Below are positions 11,877 through 31,049 of a stretch of 64,000 nt of DNA, one piece after another. The stretch comes from Peptococcaceae bacterium (lineage in GTDB: Bacteria; Bacillota; Peptococcia; DRI-13; PHAD01): the NCBI GenBank assembly GCA_024655825.1, contig JANLFJ010000005.1, positions 28,541 through 92,540 on the forward strand, read 5' to 3'. Numbering within the stretch: the stretch's first letter is position 1; every line of letters begins with the position of its first letter. Position numbers and translations under genes: made by a program. The notes below the pieces were generated by a model. It was given only the letters and a program-made list of their open reading frames with translations, did not search any database and was not told the origin of the DNA.

Positions 11877-11906
11877 TACCGTCCAGATTTGTTTTGGCAT
11901 ATATTA
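11877..11906 (+). promoter_or_regulatory. SigK/SigE-type promoter
   Basis: TACC-N17-CATATATTA. Confidence 0.5.
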
Positions 11907-12300: not shown

Positions 12301-12921
12301 TCAGAAACACTGGGCTGGGGGTGGAAGAGGGCATACACCCGGCAGGGTTACACACGGCGCCGGTACGCAAAAACCATAGCTGGGAACGAGAAGCTGAACG
12401 GTAAGGATGCACTTGATAACAAAACAAACCTGGATGTTGCAGCTTACGGTTATGCTTCCCAAGTTAACCGCGGTGACAACACAGCTGCATACGATGAGCG
12501 AGCTTTCCGAGCAGTCGGGGCTCACGCCTTCTGGGCAGCACAGCGTGACTGTCTTGGTAAAGGTAACTGTCTCCGTTGTGGTTTCTGCAGCGGCGTTGGG
12601 ATTGGTAAGAACCAGGGGGACCGTCACCAGGACCGTAACAGTGAAAAAACCGTCGCCTACAGCCGTGCGGCTTACTTCTATGCAACTGATACCGGCGGAA
12701 CCCAGAGCGCAGGGGACGGCCTGACCCACAGTAAAGGTACCTGTCGGGAACTCGCCGCCGATTCCGGTGGTCACGGTAAAATCGCGGGTAAGGTCGTGAA
12801 TCTGGAAACAGCTGTCGTATACTTTATCTACGACTATGCATTCAATCCGGGTTGGCGGTGGGCAACCTTCCGGTGGGCATACGCCTGGCGAAACTTGCTC
12901 AAGCTTTGCTTTATCTGCCAT
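12301..12921 (-). CDS. Cysteine-rich putative spore coat/exosporium protein
   Basis: 18 Cys in 206 aa, IECIVVDKVYDSC and LLVPSYGFCVP motifs seen in clostridial spore-surface proteins, AAGGAGG RBS, no signal peptide. Confidence 0.7.
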   Translation of the reverse strand: MADKAKLEQVSPGVCPPEGCPPPTRIECIVVDKVYDSCFQIHDLTRDFTVTTGIGGEFPTGTFTVGQAVPCALGSAGISCIEVSRTAVGDGFFTVTVLVTVPLVLTNPNAAAETTTETVTFTKTVTLCCPEGVSPDCSESSLIVCSCVVTAVNLGSITVSCNIQVCFVIKCILTVQLLVPSYGFCVPAPCVTLPGVCPLPPPAQCF

Positions 12922-13074: not shown

Positions 13075-13395
13075 TCAACCGCGCCGCACATGATGATAAC
13101 CAAGGTTGGAAATAATGTGAGCAATGGTGGAAAGCGAAGTTGAAACGGGGTTGAAGTATACCGTTAGATTTTTTTGATGGAGAAGCGGCTTTACCCTGAC
13201 AACTCCGCTTTGAGCAAGCAGTGCGGATGATATTTTTTCCGCGTCGTTCTTGCTTTTCATATCCGTTATATTAATTGTGTAAGCGAATTCTTTTCCCACA
13301 ACGTGGTAAAAATTAACTCCAGACTGCTGGAAAGGTTGAGTTTTTGAACCCTGGTTTGCCCAGAGGGGATCAAGTCTTTTTTTGTACCAGCTCAT
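13075..13395 (-). CDS. HMA-fold protein lacking the CxxC motif
   Basis: TINITDMKSKNDAEKISSAL...SGVVRV...LTVYFNP...IISNLGY follows the HMA pattern; GGAGG RBS. Confidence 0.7.
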   Translation of the reverse strand: MSWYKKRLDPLWANQGSKTQPFQQSGVNFYHVVGKEFAYTINITDMKSKNDAEKISSALLAQSGVVRVKPLLHQKNLTVYFNPVSTSLSTIAHIISNLGYHHVRRG

Positions 13396-14270: not shown

Positions 14271-14361
14271 TGTTCGATTACGAAACAAGTATATTCCACC
14301 GCGTGAGTAACAAAAAAGCCACCTTAGGTAAGCATTGTTAAATGCTTTTTTATTTCGATAT

Positions 14362-14390
14362 GACATCTTTGGCTGGGGTCTCATATAGTG
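14362..14390 (+). promoter_or_regulatory. SigK-type promoter
   Basis: GACA-N16-CATATAGTG. Confidence 0.65.
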
Positions 14391-16592: not shown

Positions 16593-16614
16593 GAAAAGAA
16601 TAGCGAGAAGAACT

Positions 16615-16651
16615 AAAAGAGATTAAACCCATAAAAGGTTTAATCTCTTTT
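16615..16651 (+). terminator. Intrinsic (probably bidirectional) terminator
   Basis: AAAAGAGATTAAACC-N7-GGTTTAATCTCTTTT perfect 15-bp stem. Confidence 0.85.
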
Positions 16652-16664
16652 AATTATTTACAGT

Positions 16665-16693
16665 AACCAAATTGTTGTACATGCAATATCATA
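16665..16693 (+). promoter_or_regulatory. SigK-type promoter
   Basis: AACC-N16-AATATCATA. Confidence 0.5.
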
Positions 16694-16736
16694 TATCAGG
16701 CAGTCCTAAATACTTATGCCGGAAAGGAGATTATGC

Positions 16737-16952
16737 ATGTTCCCAAATGACCTGGAAAAGATTTTTCAAACTGAAGACGCAGCCCTGGAAAAGTTAGCTA
16801 ATTTTCTTTTGGATGTTTTAAAATCTGGAGAAAATAACATGGATTCTAACTTGGGAAAGTCATCGTGTTGTTGCCCTGGGTTAATAAAATTTAAGGTCAT
16901 CGGCAGTACTGTGGTTATAATTAATAACAATGCCGAATGCAAGCGCGATTGA
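16737..16952 (+). CDS. Small CCCP-motif protein, paralog A (71 aa)
   Basis: AAAGGAG RBS before ATG 16737 (track start 16716); shares C-terminal motif with 17081..17335. Confidence 0.8.
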   Translation: MFPNDLEKIFQTEDAALEKLANFLLDVLKSGENNMDSNLGKSSCCCPGLIKFKVIGSTVVIINNNAECKRD

Positions 16953-17006
16953 AATTCTGTCCGATTTTTATCATCCTGTTTTTAAAACTGGTTCTTCAAA
17001 AAAAGT

Positions 17007-17034
17007 AACTAAAAGAAGGTAGAAGCATAGTATA
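17007..17034 (+). promoter_or_regulatory. SigK-type promoter
   Basis: AACT-N15-CATAGTATA. Confidence 0.55.
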
Positions 17035-17080
17035 TAATTGGTCGAGCTAATAATCATTATTCTGGAAGGAGGTTTTTATA

Positions 17081-17335
17081 TTGAAGATTAATGAGATACT
17101 TGAGATTCCTCCCGTTCTTACCCCGGAGGTTATTCAGGCCATTGCCGATAACGCTGAGGCACTAAAAGCGTTAAAAGCGGTTTTAAGTTCAGGCGATGAG
17201 GCTGTGGCGTTAAGCAATGACTGCCATTCTAAAGATTGCTGCTGCCCTAAATTCCTGAAATTCAAGATCATTGGCTGTACTGTCATTATTATCAACGACA
17301 ATGCAGAATGTAAAGAAAACAATAATTCTGATTAA
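17081..17335 (+). CDS. Small CCCP-motif protein, paralog B (84 aa)
   Basis: AAGGAGG RBS, TTG start; CCCPKFLKFKIIGCTVIIINDNAECK. Confidence 0.8.
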   Translation: MKINEILEIPPVLTPEVIQAIADNAEALKALKAVLSSGDEAVALSNDCHSKDCCCPKFLKFKIIGCTVIIINDNAECKENNNSD

Positions 17336-17352
17336 GAAAAGACGTATTAATC

Positions 17353-17380
17353 ATCCGGGAGTGTACAGCTCCCGGATTTT
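17353..17380 (+). terminator. Intrinsic terminator
   Basis: ATCCGGGAG-TGTACAG-CTCCCGGAT followed by TTT. Confidence 0.7.
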
Positions 17381-17516
17381 GCATCACTAACCCGTCCAAC
17401 AACTTGCAACAAACAGCAATCGTGCCGGCAACTTTCCTACAATTACCACGAGACTTTATTCGCTAAACATGCTATTTTATGGATACAGGAAAAATTTTAG
17501 GGAAAGAGGGAATGGC

Positions 17517-18363: not shown

Positions 18364-18393
18364 CACTCCTTCCTTGTACCCATTCATATTATA
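18364..18393 (+). promoter_or_regulatory. SigK/SigE-type promoter
   Basis: CACT-N17-CATATTATA. Confidence 0.55.
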
Positions 18394-18435: not shown

Positions 18436-19212
18436 TTGCACGAATATGAATTTACGGCCCAGGTGAAACAATTGTGGAAGGACCCGGAGATTCAGGCGCT
18501 GGCCAGGCGCTGCTACCATAAATTATTTAAATGCACGCCAGTTATCCTGGAAAAGGTTTGTGCATCCGGGACCAAGTGTTTTCACGACATTCATTATCTC
18601 TTTGAAACAGAAGGAGGACTTCCCATCCCGCCCGATGCATGTCCCATCAATTGCGTGGTAAGCAATTTTGCCATCTGCGGCGTGGGAACGGCGCCGTTGA
18701 AGCCTGGCGTGCTTGCCCCGCGCAGGGTAGGAGAATGCATAGTTTTCACCGTTGTCTACAAAGTCCGTGTCTGGTTTGAATTCTTTGATACGGTCAATAA
18801 CAGCGTGGAAGTGGGGATGGCAAGTCAATGTTTCGAGCGCGAGCTGGCGGTACCCGTTGAGGATATAGACGGGGGCTGTGTGCTTTGCCAGCCGGAGGCG
18901 GTCGATCTCTGCATCAGGAGAATAAATCTCGACTGTATCAGGGCCGTGGTTGTACCCCGCCCTGAAGGGTTTCCCAAGTCTTTCCCCCCATACGCTATTG
19001 AAGTTACGGTGGAAAAGGAATTCTTTGCGCTGGAATCGGGAAGGTCTATTGTCTGTTTGCCCACATGTGTCGAGGAGTGTATCGAACTGCCGTTTCCGAT
19101 CTTTCCGGGAGAGTGTGTGCCGTTTGAGAAAGAGGCCAAGTGCGACGAATTTTGCCAGGAAACGGACCTGCAGCCCGGCCGCTGCGCCCAGTGCCCGCCG
19201 CCTCAGCCATGA
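18436..19212 (+). CDS. Cysteine-rich putative spore coat/exosporium protein
   Basis: 21 Cys in 258 aa, Pro-rich, no signal peptide, AAAGGAGG RBS with TTG start. Confidence 0.7.
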   Translation: MHEYEFTAQVKQLWKDPEIQALARRCYHKLFKCTPVILEKVCASGTKCFHDIHYLFETEGGLPIPPDACPINCVVSNFAICGVGTAPLKPGVLAPRRVGECIVFTVVYKVRVWFEFFDTVNNSVEVGMASQCFERELAVPVEDIDGGCVLCQPEAVDLCIRRINLDCIRAVVVPRPEGFPKSFPPYAIEVTVEKEFFALESGRSIVCLPTCVEECIELPFPIFPGECVPFEKEAKCDEFCQETDLQPGRCAQCPPPQP

Positions 19213-28259: not shown

Positions 28260-31049
28260 ATGGAAAAGGCTAACAAGTATAATGAAACTCTCAACCTTCC
28301 AAAAACAGAATTCCCGATGCGGGCCAACCTTCCGCAGAGGGAGCCGGAGATTTTGAGAAAATGGGAGGAAATCAAACTTTACGATACTGTCCAGGAGTCC
28401 TGCAAAGGCCGGCCCAAATTTATCCTGCACGATGGACCTCCATACGCCAATGGGGACATTCACCTTGGGCATACTTTGAATAAGGTGCTGAAAGACATAA
28501 TTGTCAAATTCCACAGCCTTAGAGGTTATGACTCACCTTATGTGCCGGGCTGGGATACCCACGGCCTGCCTATAGAACAGCAAGCCATCAAGGCCCTGGG
28601 CTTAAACAGGCACGCTGCCGATCCCCTGGAGTTCAGAAGGCATTGCAGGGAATATGCATTAAAATACGTAGATATCCAGAGAGAGCAGTTTAAACGCCTT
28701 GGAGTAAGAGGGGACTGGGAAAACCCGTACCTCACGCTGAGCCCTGAATTTGAGGCCGTACAAATCGGTGTTTTCGGCGAAATGGCTAAAAAAGGGTATA
28801 TTTACAAAGGGCTGAAGCCGGTCTACTGGTGTCCGAGTTGCGAAACAGCGTTGGCCGAGGCAGAGATCGAATACAACGAAAAAAAGTCGGCTTCAATTTA
28901 TGTCAAGTTTCCTGTAAGCCAAGGGAATAACGTTCTGAGAGAGGACAACACGTATTTTGTAATCTGGACAACCACGCCCTGGACGCTTCCGGCCAACATG
29001 GCCATCTGTCTCCATCCGGAATTGGAATACAATGTACTGGCGGTTGGCGAAGAAAAGTATGTAGTTGCCGGGGAGCTTACGGCGTCTTTTCTCGAAGTGC
29101 TGGGCAACCCGCCGCATTATATCGAAAAAAAATTCCGCGGCGCAAAACTGGAAGGAATTACGTGCCGCCATCCTTTTTATGACCGGAAATCGGTGGTTGT
29201 CCTGGGGGAACACGTCACGACGGAGCAAGGAACCGGCTGCGTCCACACCGCTCCGGGACACGGCGTAGAAGACTTCGAGGTCGGTAAAAAATACGGTCTT
29301 GAAGTTTTGTCGCCGGTTGACGACAGAGGAAGGTTTACCAGGGAAGCCGGCAAGTTTGCAGGAATGTTTATCGAAGACGCCAATAAGGCAATATCCGCCG
29401 AGCTGAAGGAAAGGGGCCTGCTCCTGCACCTGGGATTTATCAGGCACCAGTACCCGCATTGCTGGCGCTGTAAAAAGCCGGTCATGTTCAGGGCGACTGA
29501 GCAGTGGTTTGCTTCAATTGACGGGTTCCGCCAGCAAATACTGCAGGCCATCGAGGAGGTCCGCTGGATCCCTGCCTGGGGAAAGGACAGGATTCACAAC
29601 ATGGTAGCCGAACGGAGCGACTGGTGTATCTCCAGGCAGCGAACCTGGGGAGTGCCTATCCCGATTTTTTACTGCAAAGAATGCGGGAAAGAGATCATTA
29701 ATGATGACACAATCGGCCATTTGCAGAAACTTTTTGCTGAACACGGCTCAGACGTATGGTGGGCCAGGCCGGCAGAAGAACTGATCCCGCCGGGGCTTGC
29801 CTGTCCAGCCTGCGGTAGAAGAGAATTCCGCAAGGAAACCGATATTATGGATGTCTGGTTCGATTCCGGTTCAAGCCACTTTGCCGTTCTGGAAAAACGT
29901 CCTGAACTGAGATGGCCTGCCGATTTGTACTTGGAAGGAAGCGATCAACACAGGGGTTGGTTTAACTCGTCTTTATCGACATCGGTGGCCGTGCGGGGGA
30001 CGGCGCCGTACAGGGCGGTTCTGACTCATGGTTTTTTGGTCGACGAAATGGGAAGAAAAATGTCCAAATCCCTTGGGAACGGGATAGACCCTCTGGAAGT
30101 TATCGAACAGATGGGGGCGGATATACTGAGACTGTGGGTTTCTTCCGCCGATTACCGGACCGATGTGGCCGCCTCGCCCAATATTCTAAAACAGATAACG
30201 GAGGCATACCGGAAAGTTCGCAACACCTGCCGCTACATCCTGGGAAATCTTTACGACTTTAATCCTGAAAAAGACGGGGTATCTTATGAGCAACTAGCCG
30301 AAATCGACAGGTGGGCGCTTCTTAAGCTGCACAAATTGATAAAAAGGGTTACGGACGCCTATGAGAATTATGAATTTCATGTGGTATACCACAGCATCCA
30401 CAATTTCTGTGCCGTGGATATGAGCGCAATATACCTGGACATCATTAAAGACAGGGTCTATACGGCAAAAGCCGGTTCGCTCGAGCGCAGGAGCGCCCAG
30501 CAAACCATGTACGAGATAATCTCAGCGCTGGTCAGAATGCTCACCCCCATCCTGGCTTTTACCACGGAAGAAATCTGGCAGTACTTGCCTTATAACAAAG
30601 GAGCAGCAACGGTACAGGCAGCCGGATGGCCGGAGTACAACGAACGCTGCGTTGATAGTGATCTGGAAAAACGCTGGGAAAAAATACTGGAGATCAGGGA
30701 GTATGCAGCTAAGCCCCTGGAGGAAGCTCGCCAGCAAAAGGTCATCGGGCATTCCCTGGATGCACGCGTTCAGCTGTATGCCGCCGGCGAGTGGTATCAA
30801 TTTTTGAAGGAATTGGAAAGCGAGCTGCCCACTATCCTGATCACCTCGAGCGTGGCCGTTTATCCTAAAGGGGAAGCGCCGGCCGGTGCTTATTCGAGCG
30901 AAGATATTCCGGATGTCGCAGTCCTTGTGCAAAAAGCACCCGGAAAAAAATGCGAACGCTGCTGGATATATTCAGAAACCACGGGATTGGAAGAAGCGCA
31001 TCCCACCCTGTGCCGGCGCTGCGCGCAAGTAATGGCGGGGCAGAATTGA
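28260..31049 (+). CDS. ileS: Isoleucine--tRNA ligase (type 1)
   Basis: HDGPPYANGDIHLGH, GWDTHGLP, WTTTPWT, KMSKSLGN, C-terminal CERCW...CRRC Zn finger; ATG 28260 (track start TTG 28140 coincides with the -35 element). Confidence 0.98.
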   Translation: MEKANKYNETLNLPKTEFPMRANLPQREPEILRKWEEIKLYDTVQESCKGRPKFILHDGPPYANGDIHLGHTLNKVLKDIIVKFHSLRGYDSPYVPGWDTHGLPIEQQAIKALGLNRHAADPLEFRRHCREYALKYVDIQREQFKRLGVRGDWENPYLTLSPEFEAVQIGVFGEMAKKGYIYKGLKPVYWCPSCETALAEAEIEYNEKKSASIYVKFPVSQGNNVLREDNTYFVIWTTTPWTLPANMAICLHPELEYNVLAVGEEKYVVAGELTASFLEVLGNPPHYIEKKFRGAKLEGITCRHPFYDRKSVVVLGEHVTTEQGTGCVHTAPGHGVEDFEVGKKYGLEVLSPVDDRGRFTREAGKFAGMFIEDANKAISAELKERGLLLHLGFIRHQYPHCWRCKKPVMFRATEQWFASIDGFRQQILQAIEEVRWIPAWGKDRIHNMVAERSDWCISRQRTWGVPIPIFYCKECGKEIINDDTIGHLQKLFAEHGSDVWWARPAEELIPPGLACPACGRREFRKETDIMDVWFDSGSSHFAVLEKRPELRWPADLYLEGSDQHRGWFNSSLSTSVAVRGTAPYRAVLTHGFLVDEMGRKMSKSLGNGIDPLEVIEQMGADILRLWVSSADYRTDVAASPNILKQITEAYRKVRNTCRYILGNLYDFNPEKDGVSYEQLAEIDRWALLKLHKLIKRVTDAYENYEFHVVYHSIHNFCAVDMSAIYLDIIKDRVYTAKAGSLERRSAQQTMYEIISALVRMLTPILAFTTEEIWQYLPYNKGAATVQAAGWPEYNERCVDSDLEKRWEKILEIREYAAKPLEEARQQKVIGHSLDARVQLYAAGEWYQFLKELESELPTILITSSVAVYPKGEAPAGAYSSEDIPDVAVLVQKAPGKKCERCWIYSETTGLEEAHPTLCRRCAQVMAGQN

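Follow-up and report, generated by a model that had tools for sequence, protein, structure and literature searches.

The 64,000 nucleotides (nt) analysed here, positions 28,541 to 92,540 of contig JANLFJ010000005.1 of a Peptococcaceae bacterium (hereafter, the window), carry two adjacent small genes that we call small1 and small2. The two are a conserved two-gene unit of a rare, previously uncatalogued family in endospore-forming Clostridia. Their promoters, their sequences and the contexts of their relatives suggest that they encode two small structural proteins of the spore coat or outer layer, made late in the mother cell as a sigma-K-class pair, a reading to which we give a probability of about 55%. 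The novelty lies in the family itself, which has no profile, structure or literature, in its C-terminal module and in a pair of covarying cysteines. The kind of protein is not new: small, cysteine-rich, lineage-specific coat proteins driven by sigma-K are well known.

Two paralogous genes under purifying selection

The original prediction for this DNA described two adjacent open reading frames (ORFs) of 71 and 84 amino acids (aa), and both are present in the ORF list: small1 at 16737-16952 (+ strand, ATG start, 71 aa) and small2 at 17081-17335 (+ strand, TTG start, 84 aa). They represent two subtypes of the family, B for small1 and A for small2. Reading the sequence upstream, we found a ribosome-binding site (RBS) for each gene: GGAAAGGAG at 16721-16729 (+), 7 nt 5' of the ATG, and GGAAGGAGG at 17064-17072 (+), 8 nt 5' of the TTG. 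Orthologues that begin MVKINEVLEIPP and MKNKDIPEIPP support the TTG start of small2.

The two proteins are paralogues (BLASTP E=1e-14). Their last 26 residues had been described as nearly identical, which is slightly generous for a module with 19 identities in 26 positions; the similarity itself holds, since six of the seven differences are conservative. The codons quoted in support of this claim (tgt tgt tgc cct versus tgc tgc tgc cct) are exact. Over the 26 codons of the module the proportion of synonymous differences (pS) is 0.82, a saturated value in which 12.5 of about 15 synonymous sites differ, against a proportion of non-synonymous differences (pN) of 0.135 (Nei-Gojobori). Comparisons between orthologues agree, with non-synonymous divergence (dN) well below synonymous divergence (dS): dN is 0.20 and dS 2.7 between the A-type genes of the window and of L027, and 0.10 and 1.2 between the orthologues of L029 and L006 (L-numbers are loci in carrier genomes). 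This confirms that small1 and small2 are real genes under purifying selection, as had been proposed.

Each protein combines a helical N-terminal part with a cysteine-bearing C-terminal module. The N-terminal half of small1 (EDAALEKLANFLLDVLKS, + strand gene) aligns with the other B-type sequences as EDAALEKIxxLLxxLKSxLFNxDNT, and its C-terminal module, CCCPGLIKFKVIGSTVVIINNNAEC, occupies residues 44-68 (nt 16866-16940, +). In small2, the N-terminal motif IPPVLTPEVIQAIADNAEALKALKAVLSSGDE with its predicted helices (residues 15-23, 25-36 and 39-44) is followed by a variable linker. Then come CCCP at residues 53-56 (nt 17237-17248, +), a beta-hairpin predicted by AlphaFold2 at residues 58-63 and 66-71 (nt 17252-17293, +), NDNAEC at residues 72-77 and a short polar tail.

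A rare family with one architecture

A word-indexed search of 5.8 billion proteins returned 11 relatives of small2, and homologues of small2 have 57-71% identity to it. A profile search of 1.84 billion representatives yielded 38 hits, three of them spurious, which leaves about 35 clusters at 50% identity; small1 is P0018 in this representative library, whose members are given P-numbers. The three rejected candidates (P0027, P0045 and P0048) turned out on inspection to be long repeat proteins with spurious low-complexity matches. A second profile search gave 48 clusters at 90% identity, and all those with a name are called 'hypothetical protein'.

The clusters at 50% and at 90% identity all have lengths of 63-121 aa, and true members as a whole are 51-121 aa long; they have one common architecture. 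The N-terminal region reads P-x-L-L-T-P-E-v-I-x-A-i-A-e-N-A-e-a-L-K...S-G-D-E. A variable linker, in many cases with an abundance of Cys, His or charged residues, leads from there to the module CCCP-K-x-l-K-F-K-f-x-x-x-N/T-V-x-I-i-N-x-N-A-x-C, after which comes a short, acidic or polar tail that often ends in Cys.

The model that made the original prediction did not recognise the family, and neither did the databases: scans of small1 and small2 against Pfam, NCBIfam, PHROGs and PADLOC gave zero matches. For a role in phages or in anti-phage defence, this means that no PHROGs or PADLOC model was matched by either protein. Extending the Pfam search to 45 members gave no consistent match at E<=1, and a profile search of PDB returned chance helical matches only (E>5). 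Foldseek found nothing in PDB at E<=0.001 with either of the two AlphaFold models, a result of little weight given their moderate confidence. We also found no significant profile match to known coat, exosporium or appendage families (CotY/CotZ/ExsY, Coat_F, DUF3992/Ena, BMQ_0737 and Tiny_TM_bacill). A literature search retrieved no paper that uses a CCCPK motif in this sense or that describes the family.

The family is present in one of four genomes of the window's own taxonomic family, in 3 of 88 genomes of the class and in 3 of 401 sampled from the phylum. The named carriers are metagenome-assembled genomes of digester Clostridia and Candidatus Formimonas warabiya, a member of the Peptococcaceae with three copies (L012 and L013). 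Every identifiable carrier is a Clostridia or Peptococcaceae-type bacterium.

A conserved pair and its tandem relatives

Two features of the family go beyond the original prediction. The first is that the B-then-A pair is conserved: this order is found in at least five genomes (those of the window, L027, L029, L031 and L006). The second is that the A type is conserved over its whole length, and not at the C-terminus alone. L027 is syntenic with the window, as both have sigE-sigG, nrdR-nrdD-nrdG, a CAP gene, an HMA-like gene and a Cys-rich protein, of 208 aa in L027. There the pair directly follows nrdG, so it has moved within a conserved island. The phylogenetic tree places the B type inside the A type, which indicates that a duplication gave rise to it and that its N-terminal half then diverged.

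Other carriers have larger arrays. L003 has four tandem copies, namely a 51-aa copy that lacks the N-terminal part, followed by A, B and A. The divergent clade of L032-L035 has three tandem relatives at each locus.

One of the three is larger. At L032 (6401-6901), L033 (6314-6928), L034 (5385-5882) and L035 (619-1152), this relative is a protein of 165-204 aa that carries the MPELITP N-terminal motif of the family, a Cys-poor hairpin without CCCP (NVKLVFCNVTIG) and a C-terminal coiled coil. It always lies between two canonical small members.

Promoters of the sigma-K type

The original prediction had assigned each gene its own promoter. Each does have a promoter-like site, of the sigma-K type and not of the sigma-70 type: we found no sigma-70-like site upstream of either gene on the + strand. 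The -10 element is common to sigma-E and sigma-K promoters, which differ in the -35 element (ATA and AC, respectively) (PMC3789822). From the same consensus (PMC3789822) we defined a strict pattern, AC-N16-17-CATAnnnTA. The promoter of small2, ACTAAAAGAAGGTAGAAGCATAGTATA at 17008-17034 (+), is a strict match, with AC, 16 nt and CATAGTATA, and ends 46 nt before the TTG. The putative promoter of small1 (16660-16693, +) has its AC at 16666-16667 within AGTAAC, a 17-nt spacer and the -10 element AATATCATA at 16685-16693; the site departs from CATAnnnTA at one position, and 43 nt lie between its end and the ATG.

The surrounding signals delimit a two-gene unit. Upstream, the CAP/YkwD gene ends in an intrinsic terminator at 16614-16652 (+; a 16-bp stem then a T-rich tail, from a terminator scan), which isolates small1 from upstream transcription. 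Downstream, the unit is closed by a terminator hairpin at 17353-17381 (+), with a 10-bp GC-rich stem followed by UUUU. Its fold at 17353-17377 has a free energy of -18.1 kcal/mol (z=-4.18), and none of 200 shuffled sequences folds as well. Equivalent hairpins lie 3' of the A gene in L027, L029, L031 and L006. The fold and terminator scans found no such structure between small1 and small2. With nothing between the genes and a strong hairpin after the second, small2 should be transcribed from both promoters.

The same architecture recurs across the family. Of 30 upstream regions, 9 contain the strict pattern, compared with 0.19 in shuffled sequences (maximum 3), and 20 contain a relaxed pattern, compared with 1.4; orthologous promoters make these regions not fully independent, and they represent at least six lineages. 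The architecture lies 24-48 nt upstream of all five A and all five B orthologues. Among the B-type genes, L027 has a strict match (CATATTATA), and L029, L031 and L006 have the same arrangement. It also precedes the copies in L010, L012, L013, L023, L003 and L032-L035, and in the family the -35 element is embedded in a conserved AGTAAC.

We then looked at which other genes of the host carry the motif. The two strands of the 3.16-Mb genome contain only 93 strict sites, of which no more than 18 have an RBS and an ORF downstream. Besides small2, these 18 include YabG (TIGR02855, E=1e-105), a CotS-family protein (TIGR02906) and a SafA-like LysM/peptidoglycan-binding protein. In Clostridioides difficile, yabG is sigma-K dependent (PMC3789822).

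Two further genes among the 18 encode a 110-aa Gly-Tyr-Pro-rich protein and a 459-aa Cys-rich protein that starts MAKPAQPCQCSPYQSICCCGP (C6:59158 (+) and C15:2712 (+), respectively). Neither has an NCBIfam match, and both are candidates for further coat proteins. In L032-L035, a conserved stretch, GCTATTGGAAGAAGACAAACCGGTT, follows the -10 box of all paralogues, about 20-60 nt upstream of each gene; it could be a common 5' untranslated element or merely reflect recent duplication.

A predicted cysteine-bracketed hairpin

The AlphaFold2 model of small2 built from 77 sequences has three helices (15-23, 25-36 and 39-44) and two strands (58-63 and 66-71), with a mean predicted local distance difference test score (pLDDT) of 70.9 and a predicted template modelling score (pTM) of 0.35. 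CCCP stands just before the first strand and NDNAEC just after the second, so the hairpin would bring the Cys-bearing ends together. The model fits the earlier suggestion of a beta strand beside the triple cysteine, and so does the covariation of the cysteines.

Among 88 distinct sequences, 87 have the Pro-adjacent Cys and 83 the middle one. Cys1, the first of the triplet, varies together with the terminal Cys of the module: 73 sequences have both, 11 have neither, four have the terminal Cys only and none has Cys1 only (Fisher exact test, 4e-11). The four exceptions all belong to one B-type clade. The double loss requires six changes on the maximum-likelihood tree, at least four of which are forced by well-supported branches. 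Because of this covariation, Cys53 and Cys77 in small2, and Cys44 and Cys68 in small1, behave as a functional pair. To judge from the alignment, they could form an intramolecular disulfide, or a common metal site, that staples the hairpin.

A probable role in the spore coat and its alternatives

The original prediction had cast the proteins as small crosslinkers of the spore coat or crust. Of this proposal it is the sporulation and coat context that gains support, and indirectly: from the sigma-K-type promoters present in many lineages, from coat-gene neighbourhoods and from the sporulation genes of the window. The latter has ftsZ, spoIIGA, sigE and sigG, and the genome also has yabG and cotS-type genes. 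In other carriers, the array of L003 has a Coat_F-domain gene downstream, and Mn_catalase/ferritin-like and UPF0180 genes upstream. L032 and L035 adjoin a cluster typical of coat maturation, with two Spore_coat_YutH/APH kinases, a GT4 glycosyltransferase and a UDP-glucose dehydrogenase.

In the reading that we favour, small1 and small2 would depend on sigma-K in vivo: both would be transcribed late in the mother cell from the sigma-K-type promoters, the A gene also by read-through from the promoter of B. The products would be laid down in the coat or the outermost layer of the spore as small structural or cross-linking subunits. The conserved pairing of A and B suggests that they work together, probably in hetero-oligomers. 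The helical N-terminal part may serve as a targeting or interaction (docking) handle, and its conserved P-E-L-L-T-P-E motif is also found in the larger relatives. In the C-terminal beta-hairpin, Cys1 of the triplet and the Cys of NxNAxC would pair and staple the hairpin. The second and third cysteines (the Cys of CP is nearly invariant) and the hydrophobic beta-branched strands would then be free for intermolecular bonds and strand-to-strand assembly.

A more ambitious version of this scheme is a speculation that we consider rather unlikely. The hydrophobic beta-hairpins of A and B would assemble together into a polymer of a cross-beta or lattice-like kind, which bonds of the CCC and terminal cysteines would lock after lysis of the mother cell, and the P-E-L-L-T-P-E helix would be a common docking handle, also of the larger coiled-coil relatives. 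If this is true, anaerobic Clostridia have a minimal spore-surface material that assembles itself from two components, with a fold unlike that of Ena fibres or CotY/ExsY lattices.

Several observations weigh against a sigma-K-driven coat pair. One concerns sigK, which was not found in the 99.5%-complete assembly of 98 contigs: hidden Markov models recovered SigE, SigF and SigG only, and a tblastn search with the SigK of a relative from the same family retrieved SigE only, at 50% identity. The absence is likely caused by an assembly gap. Among 88 relatives, sigK is intact in 41 and present only as an N-terminal fragment in about 10, including a genome of the same family and the CCCP carrier G020; these fragments fit, and suggest, a skin-type interruption that is seemingly common in the class. 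The promoter of small1 deviates from the consensus in its -10 element. The patchy distribution (3/88 and 3/401) shows that the proteins are dispensable for sporulation. Context is not conserved across carriers, as the neighbours in L006, L029, L031, L012 and L013 are ordinary or housekeeping genes. On the structural side, the confidence of the AlphaFold model, a monomer, is only moderate (pLDDT 71, pTM 0.35), and a first AlphaFold2 run with 45 sequences had given three helices (15-23, 25-36 and 39-45) and no strands, with a pLDDT of 68.6. The mother cell of an anaerobe has a reducing cytoplasm, so that disulfides would have to form after release, and the four-Cys pattern suits metal binding equally well.

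This last point leads to the first alternative, which we regard as unlikely: small1 and small2 would be metal-binding spore micro-proteins that use the CCC and the terminal Cys to hold Zn, Cu or an Fe-S cluster, perhaps between the A and B chains of a dimer, for storage, detoxification or redox buffering instead of covalent cross-linking. Four conserved cysteines, the covariation of Cys1 with the terminal Cys and a cytoplasm that disfavours disulfides would all fit such proteins. Several members also have tails rich in His, Cys or Asp (P0030, HKHHRCEDDHKHDRCKDDHKHHKCKHH; L032, ...HGHGKC; L033, ...HGHDHC), and the neighbours in L003 include ferritin-like or rubrerythrin-like genes. However, these His-rich tails are not conserved, and neither protein of the window has one. 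Three cysteines in a row would make a single metal site of poor geometry, and the beta-branched, strongly hydrophobic nature of the hairpin points to packing between proteins. No metal-binding family or PDB fold was matched.

The proteins may instead be non-structural adaptors of late sporulation, in assembly or regulation, like SpoVM, CmpA and SscA, whose helical handle guides or checks coat assembly and which are not retained in quantity. Small size, a late mother-cell promoter type, a patchy accessory distribution and an N-terminal motif that is common to larger coiled-coil relatives would all fit. Yet one would sooner expect tandem arrays of up to four copies, doubled promoters and low-complexity linkers rich in Cys among abundant structural components, and the family has no similarity to known small morphogenetic proteins. 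We therefore hold this explanation to be improbable.

It is very unlikely that the proteins have an unrelated cytoplasmic function and that the resemblance of their promoters to sporulation promoters is a coincidence or the mark of another sigma factor. The lack of sigK in the assembly and the housekeeping neighbours of many carriers would be accounted for, but the position of the motif (24-48 nt from the start) is conserved in at least six lineages, far above chance. Moreover, the same motif marks yabG and cotS-type genes in the host genome, and the identifiable carriers, including Candidatus Formimonas warabiya, are all Clostridia or Peptococcaceae-type bacteria.

Finally, a precursor of a ribosomally synthesised and post-translationally modified peptide (RiPP), in which a conserved leader at the N-terminus would bring an enzyme to a Cys-rich core for thioether or sactionine-type cross-linking, is disfavoured and has very little probability, despite the small size, the conserved N-terminal region before a Cys-rich C-terminal one, the tandem paralogues, a GG before the Cys-rich part in some members and a radical-SAM gene that precedes the pair by 5 kb in the window and directly in L027: this only radical-SAM neighbour is the NrdG activase (Fer4_12 domain, adjoining nrdD and nrdR), the +/-6 kb around the family at about 12 loci show no recurring maturase, peptidase or dedicated exporter, the promoters are of the sporulation type, and the supposed core is the most conserved part while the leader is variable or absent (51-aa P0011 and L003_short), the opposite of RiPP families.

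Comparison with known systems

Except in Bacillus and C. difficile, the spore coat is poorly catalogued, and its proteins are notoriously lineage-specific. The closest parallels to a coat pair are CotY/CotZ/ExsY in Bacillus and CdeC/CdeM in C. difficile. These are Cys-rich products of late mother-cell sigma-K genes, and they self-assemble into disulfide-stabilised outer layers. Like small1 and small2, they are lineage-restricted and are often encoded by paralogous and often adjacent genes. They differ in size, with 150-400 aa against 51-121 aa here, where a helical handle precedes a single Cys-bracketed hairpin. There is no sequence or profile similarity between the two groups, and the CCCP-hairpin-NxNAxC module has not been described for them.

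Ena1A and Ena1B (DUF3992) of the Bacillus cereus group are small subunits of the spore surface in which a short Cys connector makes inter-subunit disulfides within a beta-strand polymer. As here, two related subunit genes lie side by side. The Ena subunit is a jellyroll of about 120 aa with an N-terminal Cys connector, whereas none of 45 family members matches DUF3992 and Foldseek gave no match.

With SscA/YjcZ, CmpA and SpoVM the family has in common a length below 100 aa, the usual lack of annotation and a mother-cell promoter; the roles in coat assembly are theirs. Those proteins are membrane-associated or amphipathic helices unrelated in sequence, in contrast to the soluble-looking beta-hairpin and conserved Cys pattern found here. 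RiPP precursors such as the SCIFF ranthipeptide are also small, with a Cys-rich C-terminal part, a conserved N-terminal part and tandem copies, but in our family no locus has a cognate radical-SAM/SPASM maturase, protease or exporter nearby, the core is conserved and the leader is dispensable. A last likeness is one of principle only. Mammalian hair high-sulfur keratin-associated proteins have CCxP/CCCP repeats in which CC(C)P provides dense points of disulfide cross-linking within a tough matrix outside the cell. These eukaryotic, repetitive proteins have no relation to the present family in sequence or fold, and no evolutionary link to it.

What the analysis defines is a module of about 25 residues (CCCP, beta-hairpin, NxNAxC), a conserved A/B unit and a covarying Cys pair that makes a testable structural prediction. 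Should the two proteins prove to belong to the coat, they would offer a very small and tractable model of how Cys-bracketed beta-hairpins build resistant layers in strict anaerobes, and a marker for late-sporulation islands in uncultured digester and subsurface Clostridia. If they are not, the result is still a set of annotated small proteins and of sigma-K promoters for an unstudied lineage.

Neighbouring genes

The pair lies in an island between nrdG and pgeF. The island encodes three CAP/YkwD-type proteins (TIGR02909-like), two of which have peptidoglycan-binding domains, and a 206-aa Cys-rich protein (12301-12921, -) whose match to the BMQ_0737 morphogenetic spore-coat family stays below threshold (NF052457, E=1.7e-6). 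The gene of the latter adjoins a small HMA-like gene (13075-13395, -), and the same arrangement is found in L027, with the 208-aa protein and a weak HMA match. Sigma-K-like sites (AC, 17-18 nt, CATAnnnT-) lie on the + strand at 14357-14385, 17448-17476 and 11878-11906, about 40 nt upstream of a 389-aa gene (14424), of the third CAP/YkwD gene and of a micro-ORF that follows nrdG, respectively. As a whole, the island from nrdG to pgeF has the look of a regulon cluster of the late mother cell.

Further downstream, a 258-aa Cys-rich protein (18436-19212, +) has a sigma-K-like site, ACTCCTTCCTTGTACCCATTCATATTATA, upstream at 18365-18393. It has no Pfam or NCBIfam match. It is highly conserved across the order (64-82% identity), often in two or three tandem copies, and is a probable core coat component of the lineage.

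The original prediction had also suggested that the small proteins partner with the larger Cys-rich ones. As an obligate partnership this is unsupported, and we reject it because the large Cys-rich neighbours are found in 20 and 26 of the 88 genomes of the class, with 64-82% identity across the order, and the CCCP family in only three.

At the approximately 12 loci that we inspected, no enzyme recurs beside the family. In Candidatus Formimonas warabiya (L012 6766-10232, -), the tandem pair adjoins a MacB-type ABC exporter and an HlyD-like adaptor, an adjacency that is probably coincidental since it is not conserved elsewhere.

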